Source: Candidatus Minthosoma caballi
Lineage (GTDB): Bacteria > Bacteroidota > Bacteroidia > Bacteroidales > Bacteroidaceae
Length of the DNA: 64,000 nt
Direction of reading: 5' to 3'
NCBI GenBank assembly: GCA_018064505.1
Contig: JAGHVC010000024.1
Coordinates: forward strand, 28,845 to 92,844
Positions 1,832-53,835 of this stretch are shown one piece after another. The translations under genes and the position numbers were made by a program. Under the pieces are notes generated by a model. It did not search any database. It was given only the letters and a program-made list of their open reading frames with translations, and had not been told where the DNA came from. Positions within the stretch are counted from its first letter, which is position 1. Each line of letters begins with the position of its first letter.

Positions 1832-4800
1832 CTACTTCACGCTTGCAACGGCAGACAATCCTGCATTGCCCAACATAATCATATTCTCACAATGCTTTCT
1901 GTTACGCACATTCAAATCCTCGTCCCACACCAGAAGATCTGGCAAAGACACCGCGAAATAATCCATCGTAACTGTGTCGTAATAATGCTGTTCGCCATAA
2001 TTCTTCAACTTATAGAACAGGCCTCTTGCCTTATCTTCTTCGCCAAGAGCGCGGTAGCAGAGAGCTGCAAAATAAATCTTTTCTGGCTTGGCGTCATTGT
2101 AGTAAAGTGCTGCGGCAGGTTCTGTAGGACCAACAGTGCCTAATTGCCACATCTCTCGAGCTTTCTCTTCATTTCCCTGCAAGCTGTATGCCTGGCCGAG
2201 ATAGTAATAGAAGTCATTATCCTGAGCGCCATAGAGCTTGCCTTCTCCTAAGTTATGTGGGAATACAAGACATTCCTCAAGCAAGCGAATAGCCTCTGGC
2301 TTAGTCAAATCCTTTTTAGCCAATTCCAATCTTGACAATTGGTACTGGCCGCTCACTTTGCCTTCTCCGCCTTCCCATGGATGGAATATGCGATTATCAA
2401 TCACAGACTTAGCCTCTTCATATCGGCCAAGCTGATTGAGCAGAGTTGCATGTTCAAGAACAAGGTCGTCTCGCTGTAAAATAAGCTCTGGCATTGATTC
2501 GTAGTTGGCAATGCGCTCCTCTGCTGTTTTCTCAAGCTTCTTATACAATTGGTCAAGCTCCATGAAAATACGCGAATCAGACTTGTCGAGCGAGAATGCC
2601 AATTCCATCTCGGCAAGAGCCTTGGCTGCATCATTCTCCTTATTATAATAGAGCAAAGCCAAATTGCGATGCACTGCTGGCAATGCCGTATTGCGTTCAC
2701 GAGCAATTTCCCAATACTTTTTCGCAAGTTCATACTGGCGCTTGTCATAATATAGACAGCCAAGCAAATAAGGCGCACGAGCACTTGCTGTCTGTTCTGT
2801 ATGCCAGCAAAGCACATTGATATCCTCAAGTCTATTAGGGAAGAAGATGCCTGCCTCACATGTCTCACCTACACTCATTACAGAAGAATCTCCTGCATTC
2901 ATAAGCGCAGCACAAGCATCCTGATGGAAACGGCTCATTGCCGTCATTGCATTTTCTTCGTTTGCTGTTTTCCAAATGTTTATAGCATCAGAAAGCATTC
3001 CCATAGATTTATAATGAAGAGCAAGCGAATCGTAGTTGAAATCACTTTGACGCATCAGTTGCTTCATTCGAGCCAAAACCGCACTATCTGCCGTGAGAAG
3101 ATATTTCTCGTATAAGCAGCCATAGTTGAAATGGTCACGCACTTCTTCTGCCTCGATAGCTGCAAGAGCTGCGTCCTTTTTTCCCAGCATACGAAGAGCT
3201 GCAACTTTCACAGCTACTGCACGATGGTTGTGAGCACCAAACTCGATAGCTCTATCTGCTTCGTCAAGCGCATCCTCATATCTGCACTCTTGCATGCTAA
3301 TAAGCGCGCAATGCAAGTACGAGGCACATGCCCAGCCGGCATTCCATGTTGCTTTCCAGAACCATTTGTAAGCAACAGCCGCATTGCCAAGATATTCATT
3401 GCAAAGGGCAAGATTATACAATGGCTCGCCCCAGTAAGGGTTAGGATTTCTTTTCTGCAGCACTTTAACAGCTTTCTCAAAATACGGAAGAGCTTCTGCA
3501 AAGCGTCCGCGGCGCATCAGCCACAAACCTTTCTGATTGTTGCATCGTACATCTTTTGGGTCGCGGCGAAGAGCCTCGTCATAATAGTCAAGAGCCGACC
3601 ATGTGGCATGACGATACTGCTCCAAATGCAAGCCTGTAAGGTAAAGCTGCTCCACTGTTTTTGTATCCTCAGGAGAGAATGCAGCCTCTGCTGCGTCTGG
3701 AATCTGGCGAATTTCATCAGGTTCAGGGCTATAGCTCAGCAGAACTCTGCCATTGCGAGGCTCATCTTCCGTGTCGAGAACATACACGGAAGTGTCGCAG
3801 CAGCCTTCAAATTTCACTGTCACAACTCCCTTTGGAGATACCTTCACCACCTGTTCCTCGCTACCGCACTTCACCACCACATCTCGCTCGCTTGTGCCAT
3901 ACACAAGCACCTCAATGCCACATTCTTTCTTCTCAACATTCATCACAAGATCCTTGCTGGCATTCTTCACATCAGCCATGTTGCAATATGGCATGAAATA
4001 TTGCTTGAAGTGCTTCTCCTCGCAAGGCATCAGCCAAGTGAAATCAGGCTGATTCTCTGTGTAAACACCAGCCATCAACTCGATATACGGCCCGTCTTCA
4101 TCCGTAAGATTGCGATCCCAAGCACGGCCAAAATCGCCATTGCCCCAAGTCCACTGCTTCTTTCCTGGCGAATAATGATTGCTTGCCACATGCAGCATTC
4201 CCCCCTTCGAATCATTCTCATATCCGCCCTCGAAATTATACTTGGAGTTCACACCCATGTATGATGTTGGCACCTTGATATTCTTATAGTTAGCGATATC
4301 AACACCTGCAGAGTAATCCATCTTATAATATGTGCCTGTAGCAATAGGGAAAGAGCTGACAGCACGCTTTCCATGGTCAAACACAGCGTTGATGTCTGGA
4401 GGGAAAATCGAGCGATACTCATCATTCACCTTTACGGCAGGGTTAGCCCACCACAAGAATGTCTGTGGCAAGTTCGACTGATTGCTAACCTTACCTTCTA
4501 TTTCGAGATAGGCATGTCCTGGACGAAGAGTGAACCCAGCCATGCCCTTCTGACCGAACATGCGCTCATGTTCGTTTATCCACACTGTAACCGACTCGTC
4601 CTCGTTCTCCACAATAGTGCAATCTACTGGCATATAAGTAGATGGGCGGTGATGCTGCGGCCAGTTAAACTCAATGCCACCGCTAATCCATGGGCCAAGC
4701 AAACCTACAAGTGCAGGTTTCACAACGCTGTTATAATACACGAAATGACGCTCACGCACTTTATCATAAGCCATCTGCACACGACCACCCAGTTCTGGGA

Positions 4801-8873: not shown

Positions 8874-9093
8874 TGTAACTGTAATTTTGAATTATGAACT
8901 AATATTGAGGCGCTCTCATAAATGCATACACATGAAACAGGAAATCGTTCACCGGCAATAGCATTTTTCTACATTTTTTCTTAAAACGCTCAAATAAACT
9001 CAAAAAACATTTGCAAATATACGAAATAAAAGCAGAATAATAGCAAATTCCTCGCCCTGTTTCCTTGTTTATTCCGCCAACTTTATCACCCAA

Positions 9094-9186
9094 AACTCTC
9101 TGCCCGTCTCGCATCATCGCTTTCGCCCGATAAGCCATATCGCTTACAAGGCATAAGCAATGAAGCGTGACGGGCGCACGCTTTCC
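9094..9186 (+). repeat. Y-shaped palindromic intergenic repeat, copy C1
   Basis: AACTCTCTGCCCGTCTCGC ... GCGTGACGGGCGCACGCTTTCC. The outer arms GCCCGTCTCGC / GCGTGACGGGC pair at 10 of 11 positions. The same family occurs at 25318-25412 and 53674-53766. Confidence 0.8.
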
Positions 9187-9262
9187 GCCTTGAAATGAAA
9201 CAAATCATTACGCATTGTTACAAAAATAATCCACAAATTCGTCATAATTAAAAAAAAATATG

Positions 9263-23914: not shown

Positions 23915-23948
23915 GGGCTTGAAATAAACACAGAAGCCCTTTCTTTTC
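23915..23948 (+). terminator. Putative terminator of the secreted-protein island
   Basis: GGGCTT-N13-AAGCCC followed by TTTCTTTTC. It lies directly before the left end of the inverted-repeat cassette. Confidence 0.5.
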
Positions 23949-24250
23949 GATTTTCACTTCCCCACATACCCTTTCATCGGTAAGCGATTGGGGATTAACA
24001 AACTACACAGGGTAAGTGTCCATGCCGGCACTTACCCTTTATTTTCCCCAATACTTACCCCGAACACTTTCACTAACCGCAACCCACCACTTCTAAAAGC
24101 TAAGGCGGCCAAAAGTCCGTTCGAGCAGATATGGCGTTTTTTTGCGTCAAATCGCAACTAACGACAGAAAAATAACACCGAGACACATTACGCAACATCA
24201 TTGCGTAAGATGCCTCGAATGTATAATCAGCGGATAGTGGAACCTATCCT

Positions 24251-24580
24251 TCAAAAAACAGCTGCCACGCGTCGCAATGCAGATAGTCGCTGGAGGAAAG
24301 TAGGGCTATTCTTTGTTTGTTGTAAATTATAGTCCATTTGAATCCTGAGCAGAGGAGCAGCGTTGACTCCAAGCACAGCCTCTATCAGCAACGCCATTTC
24401 TGGAGTCAGCTGTCGTTTTTTGTTCAGCATCTCATTAAGCTGAGAATATGACACACCTATCTCTTTCGCAAACTGTCGCTGCGAAATCCGTCTAAATTCA
24501 AGCTCGTCCTTAATTATCTCACCAGGGTGCGTTGCAACAAATGGTGTTGCGTCATTAGCAGAAAACTTTTGTGTTGCCAT
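24251..24580 (-). CDS. higA: HigA-family antitoxin (XRE-type HTH)
   Basis: 109 aa. HPGEIIKDELEFRRISQRQFAKEIGVSYSQLNEMLNKKRQLTPEMALLIE matches the HigA/VapI HTH pattern. It lies 6 nt downstream of the toxin gene. Confidence 0.85.
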   Translation of the reverse strand: MATQKFSANDATPFVATHPGEIIKDELEFRRISQRQFAKEIGVSYSQLNEMLNKKRQLTPEMALLIEAVLGVNAAPLLRIQMDYNLQQTKNSPTFLQRLSALRRVAAVF

Positions 24581-24586
24581 ACTATT

Positions 24587-24904
24587 TTAGCTATAATGAT
24601 TTGACAATTCTGTAATGTTGCAGATTGTGGCAATCTCCTTGCCATCTTCCAATTCTTCCTTAAACTCTATGCGGTATTGGTCATTGACTCTGACAGAAGA
24701 TAACCCCTCCTTGTCTCCATGCAGATGCTCATAGTGCAGTGACCCATATTTAGCAAGCCCCATCACATTGTCTTCAGCCGTCATCAGTTTTATCACGCGT
24801 ATGTATTTGTTGACTATCTGTGGCTGAAAACGATGTTTCTTATCATTCACCTTTCCTTTCGTATAAAGGTCATAGAGATATTCTTGCTCAAAGTTTACCG
24901 TCAT
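24587..24904 (-). CDS. higB: HigB-like toxin (RelE/ParE superfamily, plasmid maintenance killer type)
   Basis: 105 aa. LHYEHLHGDKEGLSSVRVNDQYRIEF resembles the HigB motif (L.G...G..S.R.N.Q.RI.F). The toxin-first gene order is typical of higBA. Confidence 0.8.
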   Translation of the reverse strand: MTVNFEQEYLYDLYTKGKVNDKKHRFQPQIVNKYIRVIKLMTAEDNVMGLAKYGSLHYEHLHGDKEGLSSVRVNDQYRIEFKEELEDGKEIATICNITELSNHYS

Positions 24905-24926
24905 ACGCTAAATTATGAATTTCATG

Positions 24927-24934
24927 CAAAGATA
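24927..24934 (-). promoter_or_regulatory. Candidate -7 box (TATCTTTG) for higBA
   Basis: The reverse strand reads TATCTTTG, 22 nt upstream of the higB ATG at 24904. Confidence 0.45.
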
Positions 24935-25136
24935 GCAAATTCATCTTCTGTTCGCAAATTTGTTAACACTTTTATGTCTAGGACACTTTGAAAAGTTACC
25001 AAAACACAGAATCTTTGCAGGATACATAATCAATCGAGGCATCCTGTGCTAAAAAAATAGCAGGGATGCCTCTGATAGAATTATGCGTATAGGAAAGACT
25101 GGATTGACTAAACCTTGGAGCGAATCAATGGAGCCT

Positions 25137-25166
25137 GTCCCCCATGATTTTGTCCCCCATGATTTT
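25137..25166 (+). repeat. Perfect 15-bp tandem duplication (GTCCCCCATGATTTT x2)
   Basis: Read directly from the sequence: units at 25137-25151 and 25152-25166. It lies in the non-coding part of E1. Confidence 0.9.
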
Positions 25167-25208
25167 CCCTACAACCCGACCTCTTTCCCAACTCACAGGG
25201 TGTGAGTT

Positions 25209-25290
25209 GCGGTTCGCATAAGGTAAGAGAAGCGGTTCATAAAGGGTGTAAGACGCGCTTCTCAAAGGGCGTGAGATTGAGGTTCCAAAA
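25209..25290 (+). repeat. Degenerate ~23-bp direct repeats containing GGTAAG-like motifs
   Basis: GCGGTTCGCATAAGGTAAGAGAA / GCGGTTCATAAAGGGTGTAAGAC / GCGCTTCTCAAAGGGCGTGAGATT / GAGGTTCCAAAAACG. The AAGGGTGTAAG-type cores resemble the GGGTAAGT motif of the element ends. They are preceded by the hairpin CAACTCACA-GGG-TGTGAGTTG. Confidence 0.6.
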
Positions 25291-25317
25291 ACGAAGATTG
25301 CACCACTTTTTCCCTCT

Positions 25318-25412
25318 CAAAACCTTGCGCCCGTCACGCTTGATCGCTTACGCCTTGTAAGCCTTATCGCTTACGCCCGAAAAGCGATAAGGCTTCACGG
25401 GCAGAGACTTTT
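25318..25412 (-). repeat. Y-shaped palindromic intergenic repeat, copy C2 (inside E1)
   Basis: TTGCGCCCGTCACGC ... GCTTACGCCTTGTAAGC ... CCTTATCGCTT-N9-AAGCGATAAGG ... CACGGGCAGAGAC. Its ends are the reverse complement of the C1 and C3 ends. Confidence 0.75.
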
Positions 25413-25693
25413 CAGTCTGATTCTTGGAGGAGCCCCCTCTAGCTCCCCCAGAGGGAGGATAGCCATTCGGAATGACATCAGCAATACTGCCATGGTACTC
25501 TCTGTGGATGGTAAGTGTCAACATTGGTACTTACCCTATGCAACTCATTCATTTCCTACAAATTAGAAGCAAAAGGGGGGTAAGTAGGGAAGTAGAAATG
25601 GAAAAACACAAGAATGCTGAGTAAAATGATGGGAAAACGCTATTTTTGCATCGAAAACATTGACAAATGCGAGGAAAAGCGGAAAAAAGAATG

Positions 25694-25751: not shown

Positions 25752-28190
25752 ATGAAAAGATTACATATATTTGCAGCATCACTGCTGCTTTCATCTATCG
25801 GAGCAACTGCGCAAGTGACTCCTATCAGCCAGATGGAGAAACTTGACCGTGGCGTTGTGGCTCTGCCATCGCAGACGAGCGGCATGTTCGTCAGCTGGCG
25901 TTTTCTTGGCACTGACGATGCCGACAACACCTCATTTGATGTTCTGCGCGACGGAATAGCTGTGGGCAAGAATATCACTAAGTGCACTTGCTATAATGAT
26001 GCTATCGGAAAATCAACAAGCGGATATCAAGTAGTGACAAAAGTGGATGGAGTGGCGATTGACACCACTGACATCGTGAAACCTTGGTCACAAGTGTATA
26101 AGACGCTGAAGCTTGACCGTCCAAAAGAAGGTGACTTAGGAGAAGGGACTTACACTTATTCCCCTAACGACATAAGCGTGGGTGATGTTGATGGCGACGG
26201 AGAGTATGAATTGTTTGTGAAATGGGATCCTTCCAACTCCAAAGACAACTCTCAAAGTGGCATCACTGGCAATGTGTATCTCGATTGCTACCGTATGGAT
26301 GGTACAAAGCTGTGGCGCATCGACCTCGGAAGGAATATCCGTGCAGGCGCTCACTACACACAGTTCATGGTGTATGACTTCGATGGCGATGGCCGTGCAG
26401 AGATGATGTGCAAGACCGCTCCTGGCAGCAAGGACGGAATGGGCGAATATGTGAATCAAGCAGCTACCGACACGAAAATCAAAGCTGCATCGAATTCAAA
26501 GAGCTGGGTAGTGAGTGGCGGCCGCATTGATGGAGGTCATGAATATCTCACTGTGTTTGAAGGCTCTACAGGCAAAGCGATACACACCATTGCTTACAAC
26601 CCAAACCGCAATGCTTCTTCCACTCTTAATGAGGCAACCGGCACTTTCAATTGGGACGACAGAAGCGGAAAGAGCGACAAGGGCAACTACGGCAACCGCG
26701 GCGAGCGATTCCTTGCTGCCGTAGCCTCGCTTGATGGCCCTGATGCTCCGCCTTCGGGCATCTTCTGCCGTGGATACTACACCTTTGCTTATGTGTGGGC
26801 TGTAGATTTCGACGGCAAACAGCTCAAACCTCGATGGCTGCATAAGTCGGCATCTAAGACAAGCTACAGCGTGGTTGACTACACAGAGAGCGCAGCTGGA
26901 AAGACAAAGACATACACAGCACCGGCAAGCAAGTCGGGCTCGGGCAAGAACACCCTCTATGCCAACGGCAATCACAACATCTCTGTAGCCGATGTTGATG
27001 GTGACGGAAAAGACGAAATCATCTACGGCTCAGCAGCTCTCGATGATGACGGAAAATTGCTTTACAGCGTTGGCTTTGGTCATGGCGATGCTATGCACCT
27101 CGGCGACCTCGACCCTACTCGCGAAGGAATGGAAGTGTTTCAAGTGCATGAAGAAAAAGGCACCTACTCGTGGGATGTGCACGATGCTGCCACAGGCCAG
27201 ATACTCTTCAAGGGCGGCAATAGCGGAGTGGACAACGGCAGAGGCATTGCTGCACAACTCTCATCAAGCCACTATGGCTACTATTTCAGTTCGAGCGACG
27301 ATCGTCAGCAGCGCAGCGCTGTGACTGGCAAGGCAGTGTCTTCGGGCAACACATCGCTCAACTTCCGCATCTATTGGGACGGCGACCTTCAGGATGAGCT
27401 CTTCGATGGCGGCAAGATTGACAAATGGAACGGCAGCGGCACAACGCGCCTCTACATAAAGGGAAAGAATCCGTACGACTACAACTCATCAAGCACTTGC
27501 AACAGCACGAAGTCTACACCAAATCTGCAAGCCGACATCTTTGGCGACTGGCGCGAAGAGATAATATTGTGGAACTCGCAAGACGGGGCAACGCTCAACA
27601 TCTTCTCTGCCAACACCACCACAAACTACCGAGTACCTACGCTCATGCACGACCACACCTACCGCATGGGCATTGCATGGCAGAATGTGGCATACAATCA
27701 GCCGCCACATCTTGGCTACTATCTGCCCGACATGTTCCGTACCACTTTCAAGCCAAAGGATGAGCACTCGCTGGAACAGACCGTGGAGTGTGGCGACAGC
27801 ATTCTCGCCATGACAACAGCATACCTCAACTGCACCTCGATAGCCGTTGATTCAACCTACACCCCTACGGGAAACATAAAAGGCCTGGATGAAGCATTCC
27901 AGATGAAGCGCGACCTTGCCACTCACTCAGTCATCATCACGGGAAAGCCTGAAGTGGCTGGCGACTACACCATAGTGCTGCGCGGCTCTGGCAACTCCAA
28001 CTTTGCTGGCAATGCATATCACACCCTCACCATCCATGTTTTGCCATCGGTGGGCATAGCCTCTATACAGACCAAATCCACCCCAGTCATCTACGACCTC
28101 AGCGGCCGCCGAATGACAGGCAGCCACCTTCCATCAGGAGTGTATCTGCTGAAAGAAAACGGCGTGGTGAAGAAGATAAGGATAAAATAG
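25752..28190 (+). CDS. Rhamnogalacturonan endolyase, polysaccharide lyase family 11 (YesW-like), with a T9SS C-terminal sorting domain
   Basis: DVDGDGEYELFVKWDPSNSKDNSQSGITGNVYLDCYRMDGTKLWRIDLGRNIRAGAHYTQFMVYDFDGDGRAEMMCKTAPGSKDG is near-diagnostic for PL11 (B. subtilis YesW/YesX). The signal peptide begins at MKRLHIFAASLLLSSIGATAQ, which puts the start at 25752 rather than the track's 25614. The C-terminal VIYDLSGRRM....LPSGVYLLKENGVVKKIRIK fits the T9SS type A CTD pattern. Confidence 0.88.
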   Translation: MKRLHIFAASLLLSSIGATAQVTPISQMEKLDRGVVALPSQTSGMFVSWRFLGTDDADNTSFDVLRDGIAVGKNITKCTCYNDAIGKSTSGYQVVTKVDGVAIDTTDIVKPWSQVYKTLKLDRPKEGDLGEGTYTYSPNDISVGDVDGDGEYELFVKWDPSNSKDNSQSGITGNVYLDCYRMDGTKLWRIDLGRNIRAGAHYTQFMVYDFDGDGRAEMMCKTAPGSKDGMGEYVNQAATDTKIKAASNSKSWVVSGGRIDGGHEYLTVFEGSTGKAIHTIAYNPNRNASSTLNEATGTFNWDDRSGKSDKGNYGNRGERFLAAVASLDGPDAPPSGIFCRGYYTFAYVWAVDFDGKQLKPRWLHKSASKTSYSVVDYTESAAGKTKTYTAPASKSGSGKNTLYANGNHNISVADVDGDGKDEIIYGSAALDDDGKLLYSVGFGHGDAMHLGDLDPTREGMEVFQVHEEKGTYSWDVHDAATGQILFKGGNSGVDNGRGIAAQLSSSHYGYYFSSSDDRQQRSAVTGKAVSSGNTSLNFRIYWDGDLQDELFDGGKIDKWNGSGTTRLYIKGKNPYDYNSSSTCNSTKSTPNLQADIFGDWREEIILWNSQDGATLNIFSANTTTNYRVPTLMHDHTYRMGIAWQNVAYNQPPHLGYYLPDMFRTTFKPKDEHSLEQTVECGDSILAMTTAYLNCTSIAVDSTYTPTGNIKGLDEAFQMKRDLATHSVIITGKPEVAGDYTIVLRGSGNSNFAGNAYHTLTIHVLPSVGIASIQTKSTPVIYDLSGRRMTGSHLPSGVYLLKENGVVKKIRIK

Positions 28191-28201
28191 CAAAAAGAAA
28201 C

Positions 28202-28240
28202 AAAATGCAACCTTCAGCAATGGGGGTTGCATTTTGTTTG
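28202..28240 (+). terminator. Rho-independent terminator after the lyase gene
   Basis: AAAATGCAACC-N12-GGTTGCATTTT followed by GTTTG. Confidence 0.75.
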
Positions 28241-28250
28241 CTAACTTAGC

Positions 28251-28281
28251 TTTGCTACTTTTGAAAAAATCAGTAACTTTG
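28251..28281 (+). promoter_or_regulatory. Bacteroides-type promoter (-33 TTTG, -7 TAACTTTG)
   Basis: TTTG at 28251-28254, a 19-nt spacer, then TAACTTTG at 28274-28281. This places the S1 element in the 5' leader of the oxidoreductase gene. Confidence 0.55.
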
Positions 28282-28290
28282 CAGACGGAA

Positions 28291-28380
28291 TCAGGACAAT
28301 GACGAAAACGATGACTCGAGAAATCGTTTAATTGATTATACGATTAATCGGGAAAACGATGACGATAACGACGACTAACG
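28291..28380 (+). promoter_or_regulatory. S-element copy S1 (AT-rich repeat with a TTAATYG palindromic core and hexamer-periodic flanks)
   Basis: GGACAATGACGAAAACGATGACTCGAGAAATCGTTTAATTGATTATACGATTAATCGGGAAAACGATGACGATAACGACGAC. By eye it is near-identical to S3 across the core. It lies between the promoter and the coding start. Confidence 0.7.
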
Positions 28381-29558
28381 ACCAATCAACTTCCACACTC
28401 ATGACAACAGAAGTTCTCATCATAGGCGCTGGCCCTGCTGGCAGTGCGTGTGCAATATCCCTGCAAAAAGCGGGGGTGGACTGCATCGTGGCAGACAAGG
28501 CAGCATTTCCACGCTTCAAGCTGTGCGGCGGACTCATCACCCAGAAAGGGCAAGACTGCCTTCGCGAGGTGCTGGGCAACGACGCCTACGAGCAATGCAT
28601 GGAAGTATGCGTGAGAGGCAGAGAGCAATATTTCGCACTGTGGGATGAATGCAAACGCATAGTGAGAGTGAAGCTCGACAACAACATCGTGCTCATCGAC
28701 CGCCCTACGATGGACAACTGGCTCGTGCAGCACTACAAGTCGCTGGGAGGCAGAATCATGGAGGGCAACGGAGTGAAAAGCATCGACTTTGCCGCCCATG
28801 TGGCAGTGCTCGAATCGGGCGAAGAAGTGAGCTACAAGAAGCTCGTGGCAGCCGACGGAGTGCACAGTCCCGTGGCACACATGCTCGCCGATGCCGACAA
28901 GCGATACAAGCTCAACAAGAAAGGGTGCTTCTGCCTTGAAGTGTTCGTCGATGAGAAAGATTGCGACATTGAGGATGTGAACATCCATTTCAACCTCGTG
29001 CCAAACTTCTACACATGGGCATTCAAGAAAGGCAACCAAGTGGCAATAGGATTGGGCAAGCTGACAACCGACAAGATTGACATCAAAGAAGTGCTGATAG
29101 ACTACATGAAGCGAATGGGAGTGAGACAAGGAGCAGAACAGGCATCTGCCCCCATCCGCGGAGCCGTCATCCCTTCCGAAGTGCGCCAAGCCGAATGGAA
29201 GAGCGCCGATGTGCTGTTTGCTGGCGACGCAGGCGGATTCGTCGAGCTGCTCACCTACGAAGGCATCTACTACGCCATCCGCAGCGGAAGCTATGCAGCC
29301 CAGAGCATCATCAGCGGCACATCCTACACACAACTCGTGCGTCCTATGCACCGCAAGATGCAGTACGGCAGCTTCTTCCAGAAGTTCATCTACTGGAAGC
29401 CATTCCTCAACATCATGTGCAAGTACGGCAGCACACACGGCGCCTTTATAGCCAAATTCTATGCCGACAACATTGACAACATACCATCCAAGCCACTCTG
29501 GAAGCAGATTGCCATTGTGCTGATGAAAACCGTGAGAGTGGCAGTGAAAAGGAAGTGA
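28359..29558 (+). CDS. FAD-dependent oxidoreductase, geranylgeranyl reductase-like family
   Basis: The dinucleotide-binding motif VLIIGAGPAGSACA...VADK is followed by the GGR-family RFKLCGGLIT string. The start is uncertain: TTG 28332 (track), ATG 28359 (context AAAACGATGACGATAA is shared with the SGNH gene start at 33881), or ATG 28401 (MTTEVLIIGAGPAG). Confidence 0.75.
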   Translation: MTITTTNDQSTSTLMTTEVLIIGAGPAGSACAISLQKAGVDCIVADKAAFPRFKLCGGLITQKGQDCLREVLGNDAYEQCMEVCVRGREQYFALWDECKRIVRVKLDNNIVLIDRPTMDNWLVQHYKSLGGRIMEGNGVKSIDFAAHVAVLESGEEVSYKKLVAADGVHSPVAHMLADADKRYKLNKKGCFCLEVFVDEKDCDIEDVNIHFNLVPNFYTWAFKKGNQVAIGLGKLTTDKIDIKEVLIDYMKRMGVRQGAEQASAPIRGAVIPSEVRQAEWKSADVLFAGDAGGFVELLTYEGIYYAIRSGSYAAQSIISGTSYTQLVRPMHRKMQYGSFFQKFIYWKPFLNIMCKYGSTHGAFIAKFYADNIDNIPSKPLWKQIAIVLMKTVRVAVKRK

Positions 29559-29581
29559 AAGAAAAGCAAGAAGCAAGAAAT

Positions 29582-30337
29582 ATGGAAAAAGAAACAGAAC
29601 ATACAACAGCACACACTCCGAGAACTTTGGTCGATGTTCACACCCACACCATAATGTCGGGCCACGCATTCAACACCGTGATGGAGATGATAGCCGCAGC
29701 TCAGGAAAAAGGACTGAAGATATTCGGCATCACCGAGCACGGACCAGGCATACCAGGCACATGCCATCCGCTCTATTTCCGCAACACCCATGTAGTGCCT
29801 CGCCAGTGGGGCGACATGCGCCTGCTGATGGGCGCCGAGATGAACATACTCGACACCAAGGGCACTCTCGACCTCGACGACTTCCACTGCAGCCTACTCG
29901 ACATACGCATTGCCGGCATACATCAGCTGTGCTGGAAAGGAGGCACAATAGAAGAAAACACCGACGGTATGGTAGCAGCCATCCGCAACAAATGGACTCA
30001 CATCATCTCACATCCAGGCGATGGCACAGCCGACCTGCTGTTCGAGCCCATAGTGCTTGCCGCAAAAGAGTCGCACACCCTGCTCGAGATCAACAACAGC
30101 ACATTCAAGCCATCGCGCGGCAAGACAGCCAAGGCACGCCCCCTCAACCTCGAGATTCTCCGTCTCTGCAAGCAATACGAAGTGCCTGTCATTCTCGGCA
30201 GCGATGCCCACATCAGTTTCGACATTGCCCGCTACGACTTCGTCCTCCCCATGCTTGCCGAAACCGAATTCCCCGATGCACTCGTCATGAACGACAAGCC
30301 AGAACTGTTCCTGAAATACCTTAGCATTGACGAATAA
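29582..30337 (+). CDS. PHP-domain phosphatase (YcdX-like)
   Basis: VDVHTHT...GITEHGP...GAEMNI...IAGIH...ISHPG...LEINNS...GSDAH is colinear with E. coli YcdX metal-binding motifs. The track start (GTG 29555) overlaps the upstream stop, so I prefer ATG 29582. Confidence 0.85.
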   Translation: MEKETEHTTAHTPRTLVDVHTHTIMSGHAFNTVMEMIAAAQEKGLKIFGITEHGPGIPGTCHPLYFRNTHVVPRQWGDMRLLMGAEMNILDTKGTLDLDDFHCSLLDIRIAGIHQLCWKGGTIEENTDGMVAAIRNKWTHIISHPGDGTADLLFEPIVLAAKESHTLLEINNSTFKPSRGKTAKARPLNLEILRLCKQYEVPVILGSDAHISFDIARYDFVLPMLAETEFPDALVMNDKPELFLKYLSIDE

Positions 30338-30338
30338 T

Positions 30339-30361
30339 AAAACGATGACTATGACAAATCG
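30339..30361 (+). repeat. Truncated S-element fragment S4
   Basis: AAAACGATGACTATGACAAATCG, compared with AAAACGATGACTCGAGAAATCG in S1. It lies directly after the PHP gene stop. Confidence 0.45.
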
Positions 30362-30702
30362 CCATACGGAACAAAACAAGAAGGAACATCACTATAGTGC
30401 AAAAGAACACAAAATTGTTCTGTTGGGTAACACACGAGTTTGTTCGGATTGAAATTCTATAATTTCTTAAATAGAACGATTTGTGGACACAAAATTAGTC
30501 AGAGCATTATTAATAGAGAATTTTAACTGTTTTTTTTGGGGGGCAAACCTTAACACATCTATTGACTGTTTGGGAAAAATAATTACCAATATGAGAAAAG
30601 TAAGTTTTATCTTTACTGCTTTGTTTCTTTTCCCTATTCATCTCATAGAAATACTTAACATCAAAAAGACTCTTCACCAACTTTGATTTCTCTCCCAAAA
30701 TT

Positions 30703-31228
30703 CCCTTTTTCTACTTCCCCACTTACCCTTTAGGTCATAACCAACAGATAATTAAGGCATTACAAGGGGTAAGTATCCTACTTCACACTTACCCTTTACT
30801 TACCCTGAACCTACCACATGGAGCAAGCTGCAAAGGGTTGCTGTTTTTGTGTTTCTGTTTCGTCGCAATCGAGTTGTTGACAAAACTATGTTTACAGGGG
30901 CTTCAGCATAATGTTGTGACGGCAACTGCGGTAATTTGATTGCGGTTCTTCCGTAATGTTATTCCTGCAACTGCCGTAATGATGTTACGGTTCGTCCGTA
31001 ATTGTTTTACGGAAGTTTCAGGAAAAGTTTTACGGCGGAGGGCTGCATTGTGGAGAATATGAATACAAGGAAATGAGAGCATGAACATCTCTTTTGGGGC
31101 CATATAGGGTAAGTCTGGGGTAAGTAAAGGGTAAGTGTGAAGCAGGACACTTACCCTATGTATTTCATTTATTCTCAATCATTTGCAGCCTAAAGGGTAA
31201 GTGGGGAAGTAGAAACACAGAAAAAGGG
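30703..31228. mobile_element. Inverted-repeat element E2 (about 0.5 kb, MITE-like, no credible ORF)
   Basis: A perfect 27-bp terminal inverted repeat: TTTCTACTTCCCCACTTACCCTTTAGG (30708-30734) and CCTAAAGGGTAAGTGGGGAAGTAGAAA (31189-31215). The imperfect inverted-repeat arms extend to about 115 bp. There are nine GGGTAAGT/ACTTACCC copies. The subterminal hairpins are at 30767-30794 and 31129-31156. Confidence 0.75.
30922..31006 (+). repeat. Tandem ~45-bp direct repeat in the centre of E2, with CCGTAA-N5-TTACGG hairpins
   Basis: GCAACTGCGGTAATTTGATTGCGGTTCTTCCGTAATGTT (30922-30960) and GCAACTGCCGTAATGATGTTACGGTTCGTCCGTAATTGTT (30967-31006). Hairpins CCGTAATGATGTTACGG and CCGTAATTGTTTTACGG are present. 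Confidence 0.7.
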
Positions 31229-31278
31229 TTTCTACGCAAACCTTTGGTGCAGAATGTGAACACCTATATTCCCCCACC

Positions 31279-32865
31279 TTAGAACTGGAAATATATGAAT
31301 GGCTGCACATCGCTGCTCTTTATCTGGATGACAATGAAGATGAGGATGATGAGGATGAGGGCTTTGAGGAGGAGCGGCATCTTGATGATGAGCGACCTGC
31401 TCTTGTCTGTCCATGAGTCGGGAAGCAGGTGGAGCACATAGCCGAGGAGCATGAGGGTGGCTACTGCCCAGTAGGATTCTACCCACTGCATGAACACTTG
31501 GGGCTGGAACTGGGTGAGAATCTGAGTGAACACCTGATTGGCTATGCCGAAGCTCTGGGCACGGAATAGCACCCAGCATGCTGCCACGAGATGGAAGGTG
31601 ATGAGGGTGGAGAGGGCTGTGAGAAGAAGGAGGGGGAATTTACGGTTATGGTTTATGTTATCGCTCACTGACTTCTTGCCTGGCAGGTAGGTGAGAGGGC
31701 TTGCTGCTGGACAGATGCTGTGCCAGATCTTGTCGATGCAGAGGAAGAGGCCATGCAGTCCTCCCCAGAGGATGAAGTTGAGGGATGCGCCGTGCCATAA
31801 GCCTCCGAGGAGCATGGTCATGAGCAGGTTGAAGTACTGACGGAACTTGCCGTGGCGATTGCCTCCCATGCTGATGTAGAGGTAGTCTTTGAGCCACGAT
31901 GAGAGGCTGATGTGCCAGCGACGCCAGAACTCGGTGATGCTGGCGGATTTGTATGGGCTGTCGAAGTTCTTGGGGAACTGGAATCCGAGCAGGAGGGCTA
32001 TGCCTATTGCCATGTCGGAGTAGCCTGAGAAGTCGCAGTAGATTTGCAGGGTGTAGCCATAGACGGCGAGGAGATTTTCCACTCCGCTGTAGAGGTCGGG
32101 CTGGTCGAACACTCGCTCGACGAAGTTGACGCTGATGTAGTCGCTGATGACGGCTTTCTTGAAGAGGCCTGCCATGATGAAGAATACGCCTGAGCCGAAC
32201 ATCTCGTTGCTGATGTGGAGGGGACGGCGTATCTGGGGGATGAAGTCGCGGGCACGAACGATTGGTCCTGCCACGAGCTGGGGAAAGAAGGACACATAGA
32301 AGGCGTAGTCGAGCAAGCGGCTGAGGGGCTTGATGTTGCCTCGATAGACATCTATGGTGTAGCTGAGCGACTGGAATGTGAAAAATGAGATGCCCACGGG
32401 GAGGAATATGTCGCGGGGCTGCCATGCCACGCCTTGGAGGTAGCTTCCTGTGATGGCTGGCGGCACATGGAATCCGTAGCTGGAGAGGATGGTGCAGATG
32501 GTCTCGCCGAGGAAGTTGGTGTATTTGAAGAAGACGAGGAGACCGAGGTCGAGCACGAGAGACAGGAGCACGAGGGTCTTGCCCAGTGCGCCCTTCCCTA
32601 CTCCGCTGAGGGCTTTAGCTATGAAATAGTCGGTGATGGTGACCAAGGCAAGGAGCACGAAGAAGAGTCCGCTGCTTTTGTAGTAGAAGAAGTAGGAGAA
32701 CAGCGTGACGAAGAGTATGCGCAGCGTGTCTGCTTTGCCGAGGAGGCTGTAGATGAGCGAGAAGCCGAGAAACAGGAAGAGGAAGATTCCGCTGATGAAT
32801 ATCATCGGACTATCTGGCTGGTATATGAATTGGTCTATGACCCTTTGAAAATCTATGTCGAACAT
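31279..32865 (-). CDS. MBOAT family O-acyltransferase (AlgI/PatA/DltB-like)
   Basis: 528 aa and polytopic. FWRRWHISLSSWLKDYLYISMGGNRHG and LLGGLWHGAS are the MBOAT signature regions, including the conserved His. Confidence 0.88.
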   Translation of the reverse strand: MFDIDFQRVIDQFIYQPDSPMIFISGIFLFLFLGFSLIYSLLGKADTLRILFVTLFSYFFYYKSSGLFFVLLALVTITDYFIAKALSGVGKGALGKTLVLLSLVLDLGLLVFFKYTNFLGETICTILSSYGFHVPPAITGSYLQGVAWQPRDIFLPVGISFFTFQSLSYTIDVYRGNIKPLSRLLDYAFYVSFFPQLVAGPIVRARDFIPQIRRPLHISNEMFGSGVFFIMAGLFKKAVISDYISVNFVERVFDQPDLYSGVENLLAVYGYTLQIYCDFSGYSDMAIGIALLLGFQFPKNFDSPYKSASITEFWRRWHISLSSWLKDYLYISMGGNRHGKFRQYFNLLMTMLLGGLWHGASLNFILWGGLHGLFLCIDKIWHSICPAASPLTYLPGKKSVSDNINHNRKFPLLLLTALSTLITFHLVAACWVLFRAQSFGIANQVFTQILTQFQPQVFMQWVESYWAVATLMLLGYVLHLLPDSWTDKSRSLIIKMPLLLKALILIILIFIVIQIKSSDVQPFIYFQF

Positions 32866-33881: not shown

Positions 33882-33964
33882 CGTTTTTCGTGATTGTCAT
33901 TGTCAACCCGATTAATCGTATATCGATTAAACGATTTCTCAAGTCATTGGACATCGTTATATGC
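33871..33964 (-). promoter_or_regulatory. S-element copy S3
   Basis: In gene orientation: ATAACGATGTCCAATGACTTGAGAAATCGTTTAATCGATATACGATTAATCGGGTTGACAATGACAATCACGAAAAACGATGACGATAAA. The core palindrome is TTAATCG-ATATA-CGATTAA. It fills the whole gap between the 501-aa SGNH gene stop and the 302-aa SGNH gene start. Confidence 0.7.
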
Positions 33965-53556: not shown

Positions 53557-53673
53557 TTCTTTATTAAATAGGTTTTGTAGATAAATTGTTCAGTCGTTAC
53601 GATTTGTATGACCGACATAATTAGAAAAAGTTTAATCCCTACACAAATATTTTTCTCCTTTTTTCTGTTCCAG

Positions 53674-53766
53674 AACTCTCTGCCCGTCACGCTTCATTGC
53701 TTACGCCTTGTAAGCCATATCGCTTCAGCCCGATAAGCGATGATGCGTGACGGGCGCAAGCTTTTC
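53674..53766 (+). repeat. Y-shaped palindromic intergenic repeat, copy C3
   Basis: AACTCTCTGCCCGTCACGC-TTCAT-[GCTTAC-GCCTT-GTAAGC]-[ATCGCTT-N9-AAGCGAT]-GATGC-GTGACGGGCGCAAGCTTTTC. The outer stem is a perfect 11 bp (GCCCGTCACGC / GCGTGACGGGC). Confidence 0.8.
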
Positions 53767-53835
53767 ATCCTCTGCCGTGCGACTCTCAAGCGATGTAATC
53801 ACAACACTTTCGGCGCAAAAGCATAGGTTCCTTTT

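Follow-up and report, generated by a model that had tools for sequence, protein, structure and literature searches.

A 526 bp element with mirrored multi-site arms belongs to a small, previously undescribed element family of uncultured Bacteroidales that lacks a transposase

E1 lies in an AT-rich gap between convergent genes

We analysed a 64,000-nucleotide stretch of the Candidatus Minthosoma caballi genome (contig JAGHVC010000024.1; hereafter the window, in whose own numbering all positions are given unless another locus is named). The element under study, termed E1, is located between a PHP-domain gene and an MBOAT gene.

29582–30337, forward strand: PHP-domain gene
30703–31228, no strand assigned: E1, 526 bp; outer limits uncertain by about ±20 bp, conserved tips at 30708 and 31215
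31279–32865, reverse strand: MBOAT gene

The 3′ ends of both genes face E1, and its GC content (0.36–0.43) is below that of the flanking genes on either side (0.54–0.57). The convergent, AT-rich setting reported in a preliminary description of this DNA, made from the sequence alone, was thus borne out. The spacer that separates E1 from the PHP gene (30338–30702) has 31% GC. No other stretch varies as much between strains (12%, mostly through indels), and the spacer contains only short open reading frames, none of which is in the protein collection.

In the nearest other species (locus L047) the MBOAT, FAD-oxidoreductase and PHP genes are colinear. Compared with L047 7585–9452, the FAD-oxidoreductase/PHP pair of the window (28190–30337) is inverted relative to MBOAT, and E1 sits at the junction of the flipped block. 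The FAD gene is 65% identical to its L047 counterpart, as against 86–88% for its neighbours. An inversion between E1 and E2, a second element described below, was considered as the cause of the flip and fits poorly: the gene order of the relative was not reproduced, and the FAD gene is just 65% identical.

Over positions 9000–60500, about 20 kb of forward-strand genes meet about 30 kb of reverse-strand genes exactly at E1. This convergence at the 50 kb scale, together with the mirrored orientation of the sites in E1, would suit a replication terminus or fork trap made of mirrored arrays of polar binding sites. The GC skew, however, is negative on both sides and does not switch at E1, so a terminus or origin at this position was rejected despite the converging genes. 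A fork trap also fits poorly with a second array 5 kb away, around a toxin–antitoxin pair, and with related species that, where examined, have no E1. We regard this explanation as extremely improbable.

Each end of E1 carries a conserved tip and an ordered set of 8-mer sites

The ends of E1 have the following components.

30701–30815, forward strand: left arm, with sites L1–L4 and a degenerate L5
30708–30734, forward strand: left 27 bp terminal inverted repeat (TIR) TTTCTACTTCCCCACTTACCCTTTAGG, of which the first 24 nt form the terminal box TTTCTACTTCCCCACTTACCCTTT
30721–30728 (reverse), 30767–30774 (forward), 30787–30794 (reverse) and 30798–30805 (reverse): left-arm sites L1, L2, L3 and L4
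30809–30816: degenerate fifth left site L5, ACCTACCA
30765–30796: imperfect left-arm counterpart of the lox-like palindrome
31108–31222, reverse strand: right arm, with sites R5–R1, the mirror of the left arm
31107–31114 (forward), 31118–31125 (forward), 31129–31136 (forward), 31149–31156 (reverse) and 31195–31202 (forward): right-arm sites R5, R4, R3, R2 and R1
31128–31157, no strand assigned: lox-like palindrome AGGGTAAGTGT-N8-ACACTTACCCT, a perfect 11-8-11 structure
31189–31215, reverse strand: right 27 bp TIR, exact reverse complement of the left copy

The perfect 27 bp TIR claimed for E1 was found as described, 30708–30734 being the exact reverse complement of 31189–31215. The 27-mer pair had two matches in the window and none in 100 shuffles. 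The inverted similarity, which had been said to continue inward for about 115 bp, extends over arms of 115 nt each that are 78% complementary. All of the ~25 arm mismatches fall outside the 27 bp tip (0/27 within it versus ~25/88 beyond; 0.78^27 is ~0.001). The tips read TTTCTAC... and not 5′-TG...CA-3′.

The octamer GGGTAAGT occurs 15 times in the window, where 0.71 copies are expected, and nine of these copies are within E1. The left arm has four and the right arm five, and their order is exactly mirrored. All nine could be located, and the absent fifth left site turned out to be the degenerate L5. In both arms, the distance from site 1 to site 2 is 46 bp (start to start) and sites 3, 4 and 5 are phased at 11 bp. 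The arm hairpins GGGTAAGT-N12-ACTTACCC and GGGTAAGTG-N10-CACTTACCC are present, as are the two CCGTAA-N5-TTACGG hairpins reported for the centre. Folding of the whole E1 as DNA gave z = −11.4.

The same arm is found in E2 and in a Rikenellaceae contig

The remaining clusters of GGGTAAGT in the window (24010–24060 and 25529–25585) coincide with the two arms of another element, E2, which is located about 5 kb from E1 and directly upstream of a rhamnogalacturonan lyase gene.

~23929–25624, no strand assigned: E2, with arms at 23950–24060 and 25504–25600 and conserved tips at 23951 and 25603
24251–24580, reverse strand: HigA-like HTH_3 antitoxin, cargo of E2 (PF01381, 2.6e-10)
24587–24904, reverse strand: HigB-like RelE toxin, cargo of E2 (PF05015, 4.6e-10)
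25192–25290, forward strand: internal module of E2, four 23 bp units CAnAGGGTGTnAGAnGCGGTTC, 73% identical to positions 1573–1657 of locus L002

A profile hidden Markov model (HMM) was built from the two E1 arms alone and searched against 392 kb, consisting of the window and the fetched loci. It recovered the left arm of E2 (E = 1.5e-15), the right arm of E2 (7.7e-11) and one further arm (5e-18) in L002, which is contig CAAGMI010000017 of a Rikenellaceae metagenome-assembled genome and carries a single arm only. Nothing else in the 392 kb scored below 1e-3. The 64 kb of genome read contain two family members with four arms.

All five arms share the tip box, the 8-mers and the spacing, and E2 follows the same arm plan as E1. 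The 24 nt terminal box is conserved in five of five arms, and this non-palindromic tip is the most conserved part of each. The spacer next to it is exactly 39 nt long in four of the five arms and 42 nt in the remaining one, with a sequence identity of just 50–65%. Equivalents of the arm palindrome, with the consensus AGGGTAAGTRY-N8-RYACTTACCCT, were found in every arm, and further copies of ACTTACCC follow it at the 11 bp phase. In the five-arm alignment, 36 of 56 columns within sites are invariant, compared with 11 of 55 outside. The conservation of tip, sites and spacing next to a free spacer sequence indicates a protein–DNA assembly. It strengthens the earlier idea of ordered binding sites. 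A typing of arms as left or right by spacer similarity was not significant and was abandoned.

Apart from the arm and the adjoining module, the Rikenellaceae contig has no DNA similarity to the window, which argues for horizontal spread. We conclude that E1 belongs to a small element family of uncultured Bacteroidales that is without a transposase and had not been described previously. Beside the solo arm, L002 also contains an ISL3-family insertion sequence (IS) with split transposase open reading frames (1900–3470), which interrupts a GH53 galactanase gene. Its transposase was rejected as the parent enzyme, having inverted repeats of its own and lying as an interruption in the GH53 gene.

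E2 brackets cargo that varies between strains

E2 has the composition of a mobile insertion cassette: inverted ends of the family type, HigB and HigA passengers, and no transposase in any of its strain variants. It is present and colinear in all three strains (~98% identical), and its cargo differs among them. In one strain (L046 423–4172) E2 is larger by 3.75 kb and encodes a 139-aa protein with a type IX secretion system (T9SS) tail, annotated Por_Secre_tail, a 748-aa Lcl_C-domain protein and an 89-aa open reading frame. In the other (L045 1–4183) it carries a PDDEXK_3 gene flanked by 152 bp repeats and a gene for a 1418-aa protein. Both variable cargoes correspond to window 25414–25510, and E2 of the window retains a 44 nt fragment of the 152 bp repeat at 25461–25504. 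The cargo breakpoint is the edge of a separate 108 nt palindromic repeat (25307–25414) and not an arm.

This repeat is one of three intergenic palindromes of ~108 nt, GCCCGTCACGCTT...AAGCGTGACGGGC, in the window (9080–9187, 25307–25414 and 53660–53767), which form a family separate from E1 and E2; contigs of another assembly also break at it. Two further repeats were noted inside E2. A perfect tandem 15-mer, TGTCCCCCATGATTT, is present in two copies (25136–25166). A segment of 87 bp (24157–24243) with a 17 nt hairpin (24179–24217) recurs at 86% identity within the additional cargo that the sister strain carries (L046 3680–3766).

The core of E1 is a repeat array

Between the arms of E1 we distinguished two features.

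30903–31178, reverse strand: 91-aa open reading frame, judged spurious, no Pfam family
30906–31040, no strand assigned: E1 core, six units of 22–23 bp with a consensus of about CCGTAATGnTGTTACGGTTCnT

The preliminary description had placed a tandem duplication of ~45 bp here. A repeat is indeed present, but its identity of 76% is under the threshold of TRF, and the six shorter units fit the sequence better. Positions 30947–31040 form a nested palindrome of ~90 nt that folds on either strand. The 91-aa frame had been regarded as a mere translation of the repeats; consistent with this, it has no Pfam family, and its single database relative is a copy of itself. It should not be annotated as a gene. 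When 5.8 billion proteins were searched with this frame and with translations of the arms (FPTYP...HRVS..TYPL frame), no further copies were found.

The internal module of E2 has its counterpart in L002 directly after the arm (1573–1657), and the module common to both is 95 nt long. The E1 core shares with it the unit length and a similar ACGGTTC/GCGGTTC half, and the overall similarity is not significant.

It had also been suggested that the structured centre encodes a small RNA. The RNA fold of 30900–31040 gave z = −4.8 on the forward strand, a value in keeping with this suggestion, but also z = −4.2 on the reverse strand. Such near-equal values are expected of any DNA palindrome and lend no support to a small RNA. 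Rfam gave no match in the whole window at the gathering threshold and none in 30600–31300 at E ≤ 1. Within E1 there was no excess of sigma-70-like promoters, and the single Bacteroidetes-type −7 box had no −33 element and occurred at background frequency. The homologous module of E2 and L002 showed broken pairs without compensatory changes and no RNA-type covariation, and the E1 core is not significantly similar to that of E2. We consider a small RNA very unlikely.

E1 is at one site in the assemblies of the species and absent from the relatives compared

The species is represented by three to four assemblies, and E1 is at the same site in all of them. In GCA_045641945.1 it has the same place and orientation and differs at 4 of 526 positions (0.76%), whereas the flanking genes differ by 1.2–1.8% and other intergenic DNA by 12–35%. 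Named MBOAT homologues reach at most 79% identity. E1 was absent from all four other relatives examined (L047, L048, L056 and L057), which share an MBOAT match of 79–86% or a PHP cluster match. The comparison of related strains proposed earlier therefore revealed presence in conspecific assemblies and absence beyond them, and not conservation at one position across distant relatives. In these four relatives the gene order downstream of MBOAT or PHP is also different, so that none provides a clean empty site.

ERZ27229740 and ERZ2660936 have the same E1 with an unrelated IS in the AT-rich left spacer. The IS has the inverted repeat TATTACTGTCCGCTAAA and a 9 bp target-site duplication (TSD), ATAATTAAT; its junctions are at L055 3715–3744 and L053 1–53 (~window 30752–30760). 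We had considered L053, a contig of 517 bp, as an independent copy of E1; with L055 as the other junction, it is the same locus interrupted by the IS. In these strains the left arm has 13 substitutions and no indel relative to the window over 111 positions (11.7%), and all but one of them are outside the 8-mer sites. In the core and right arm, 3 of ~435 positions differ, the rest of E1 thus being >99% identical. The divergence of the left arm, noted at window 30708–30780 against L055 and L053, may have arisen by conversion from an unseen copy of the family.

Contigs of 107 kb and 20.6 kb, both assembled from short reads, span E1, which makes near-identical extra copies in those genomes unlikely. 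Assembly breaks were also considered as a sign of repetition and discarded, since L001 and L042 break in the 108 nt repeat and the AT-rich spacer, and L055 breaks at the IS.

The low divergence of E1 between strains, relative to genes and to other intergenic DNA, and the avoidance of 8-mer sites by substitutions would also be expected of a cis element, domesticated or purely of the host, with no present mobility, either an array of sites for a host DNA-binding protein or a bidirectional terminator or insulator. The convergent gap, the fold of the whole element (z = −11.4), the terminator-like scores of the arm hairpins and the existence of other small palindromic repeat families in this genome point in the same direction. 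Correia elements and REP/BIME after immobilization provide the comparison. Yet in 64 kb the motif array is confined to two loci, and E2 encloses variable cargo of kilobase size and not a gene end. An arm also turned up in another bacterial family, with which the window has nothing else in common, and E1 is missing from relatives that keep the same neighbour genes. Domestication is, in our view, a decidedly doubtful account of E1.

The arms resemble recombination sites in part

Could the arms instead be sites for a tyrosine or serine recombinase that is supplied in trans and inverts the segment, or landing sites for cargo? Invertible segments flanked by inverted repeats are reportedly common in Bacteroidales. 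E1 resembles these invertons, and lox/FRT, in having perfect inverted repeats around a few hundred base pairs and an 11-8-11 palindrome per arm, which is perfect in the right arm and has equivalents in all others. The two palindromes of E1 are mutually inverted. Each arm has extra direct-repeat sites of the same motif next to its palindrome, as integron attI combines a simple site with DR1 and DR2. In the ERZ strain the left and right palindromes have the same 8 bp central spacer (CCTGCTTC), and in the window the two spacers match at 7/8 positions. The variation of E2 cargo between near-identical strains would also be explained.

However, the most conserved part of the arm is the non-palindromic tip and not the palindrome. 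The central spacers of E2 match at just 5/8 positions, too few for exchange by a tyrosine recombinase, and the breakpoints of E2 cargo are at the other repeat (25307–25414). E1 and E2 had the same orientation in every informative assembly (these being consensus assemblies, not reads), so that, unlike with invertons, no inverted isoform was seen. E1 is downstream of both neighbours, with no adjacent regulated gene start and no convincing promoter, and the window contains no recombinase gene. We consider recombination sites an unlikely explanation, though one with several points in its favour.

Searches for an autonomous parent

By Pfam annotation of open reading frames, there was no transposase or recombinase in the 64 kb window. 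Neither the window nor the related loci contained linked DDE or AAA+ genes, and no HUH/Y1 gene was found. Pattern scans of genomes, metagenomes and viral contigs did not find an autonomous relative, at a sensitivity that was low because exact patterns of 18–23 bases were required; the one genome match was the solo arm of L002. Scans with hairpin patterns gave 38 metagenome and viral loci, all of them chance matches, and a match to the tip pattern in viral contigs was phage coding sequence. The three-part architecture pattern had no match in viral contigs, and plasmid and phage collections gave no match. Across the collections searched, nothing resembled E1 in sequence. We saw no direct repeat at the plausible boundaries of E1, E2 and the L002 arm, and the lack of a TSD is a weak negative because the exact tips are uncertain. 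Literature searches on the motif, and on MITEs or insertion cassettes in Bacteroidales, returned nothing relevant.

E1 and E2 compared with known elements

The preliminary description had called E1 MITE-like. It is small, non-coding, bounded by a TIR and member of a family, all of which agree with that reading; a TSD, an autonomous parent and a nearby transposase were not found. Bacterial MITEs such as Correia/NEMIS of Neisseria and MITE239/BrickBuilt of Porphyromonas gingivalis are likewise small, non-coding and TIR-bounded, intergenic, strongly hairpin-forming and without a transposase of their own. E1 differs from them in that no TSD was seen, its copy number is apparently low and no parent IS was found. 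It also has arms of ~115 bp with five phased sites in place of a simple TIR.

E2 can be compared with MIC231, which derives from IS231 of Bacillus cereus. In both, inverted ends bracket passenger genes and there is no transposase, the passengers of E2 being HigBA and, in another strain, surface proteins. E2 differs in that no parent IS was found, its cargo varies via indels at an internal repeat and its mobility is putative.

Long ends with ordered short sites, the terminal one at a constant distance from the tip, are also known from Tn552 (TIRs of 116 bp), Tn7 (TnsB sites), Mu (L1–3 and R1–3, with an internal enhancer) and IS21, and the internal repeat of E1 could be enhancer-like. In contrast to these elements, whose sites are 19–22 bp long, E1 has an 8 bp site. 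It shares no sequence similarity with them and lacks what defines their type, namely linked DDE and AAA+ genes, TG...CA tips and a TSD of 4–8 bp; the likeness is an analogy only.

Like E1, REP/BIME and REPIN elements with RAYT are palindromes outside genes that occur as inverted pairs, and convergent genes often flank them. REP units, however, are 20–40 nt long and highly repeated, whereas the arms of the E1 type are 115 nt long with arrays of sites, number four in 64 kb, and were seen with no RAYT gene.

A proposed non-autonomous mobile family, mobilized in trans

The same arms enclose nothing but a core in E1 and kilobases of cargo in E2, an arm is present in another bacterial family, and E1 is absent in the other relatives examined. 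These observations are best fitted by a non-autonomous mobile element. Our preferred reading, to which we give a probability of about one half, is that E1 is a MITE of a new low-copy family and E2 its cargo-carrying sibling, both depending on an enzyme that acts in trans.

In Tn7, Mu, Tn552 and IS21, multi-site ends function through enzyme binding, arm pairing and action at the tips. By analogy, this mechanism is the most likely working model for the family, and an analogy only, since the defining genes, tip dinucleotides and TSDs are not present. Each end is an arm of ~115 bp, composed of a 24 nt tip with one 8-mer, a free spacer of 39 nt, an inverted pair of sites and one or two sites at the 11 bp phase. 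An enzyme supplied in trans would bind the GGGTAAGT sites on both arms, pair the arms and then act at the conserved tips. The core of 22–23 bp repeats may serve as an additional binding region, similar to an enhancer. Where it now lies, E1 is probably inactive or rarely mobilized.

A bolder version holds that the five-site arms form the platform on which an undescribed Bacteroidales recombinase or transposase recognizes its substrate. The enzyme would act in trans on paired arms around anything from a 0.3 kb core to several kilobases of cargo. We regard this as rather improbable. If true, such elements would make up a new class, whether cargo-shuttling or invertible, in which substrate and enzyme are never linked, with toxin–antitoxin genes and T9SS surface proteins as the exchangeable cargo. 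The hypervariable, length-locked left arm would then reflect ongoing exchange between copies of the family.

To our knowledge, few MITE-like elements have been described in uncultured gut-type Bacteroidales. If confirmed, the elements presented here would constitute a new family of non-autonomous elements for this group. Their defined end architecture offers a direct handle on the cognate DNA-binding enzyme. E2 shows that the arms can enclose genes for toxin–antitoxin pairs and surface proteins. These genes differ between near-identical strains, a point of relevance to variation at the strain level.

For the biology of its neighbouring genes, E1 is probably of minor importance. Its strong palindrome between the two convergent genes could also act as a transcription barrier. 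The surroundings of these genes contain another inverted repeat, of 35 nt (83%; 28304–28371 and 33888–33922), built on 16-mers that contain GATTAATCG. One copy is upstream of the FAD gene and the other upstream of the GDSL-MBOAT operon; the pair may be a shared operator or the trace of a rearrangement.
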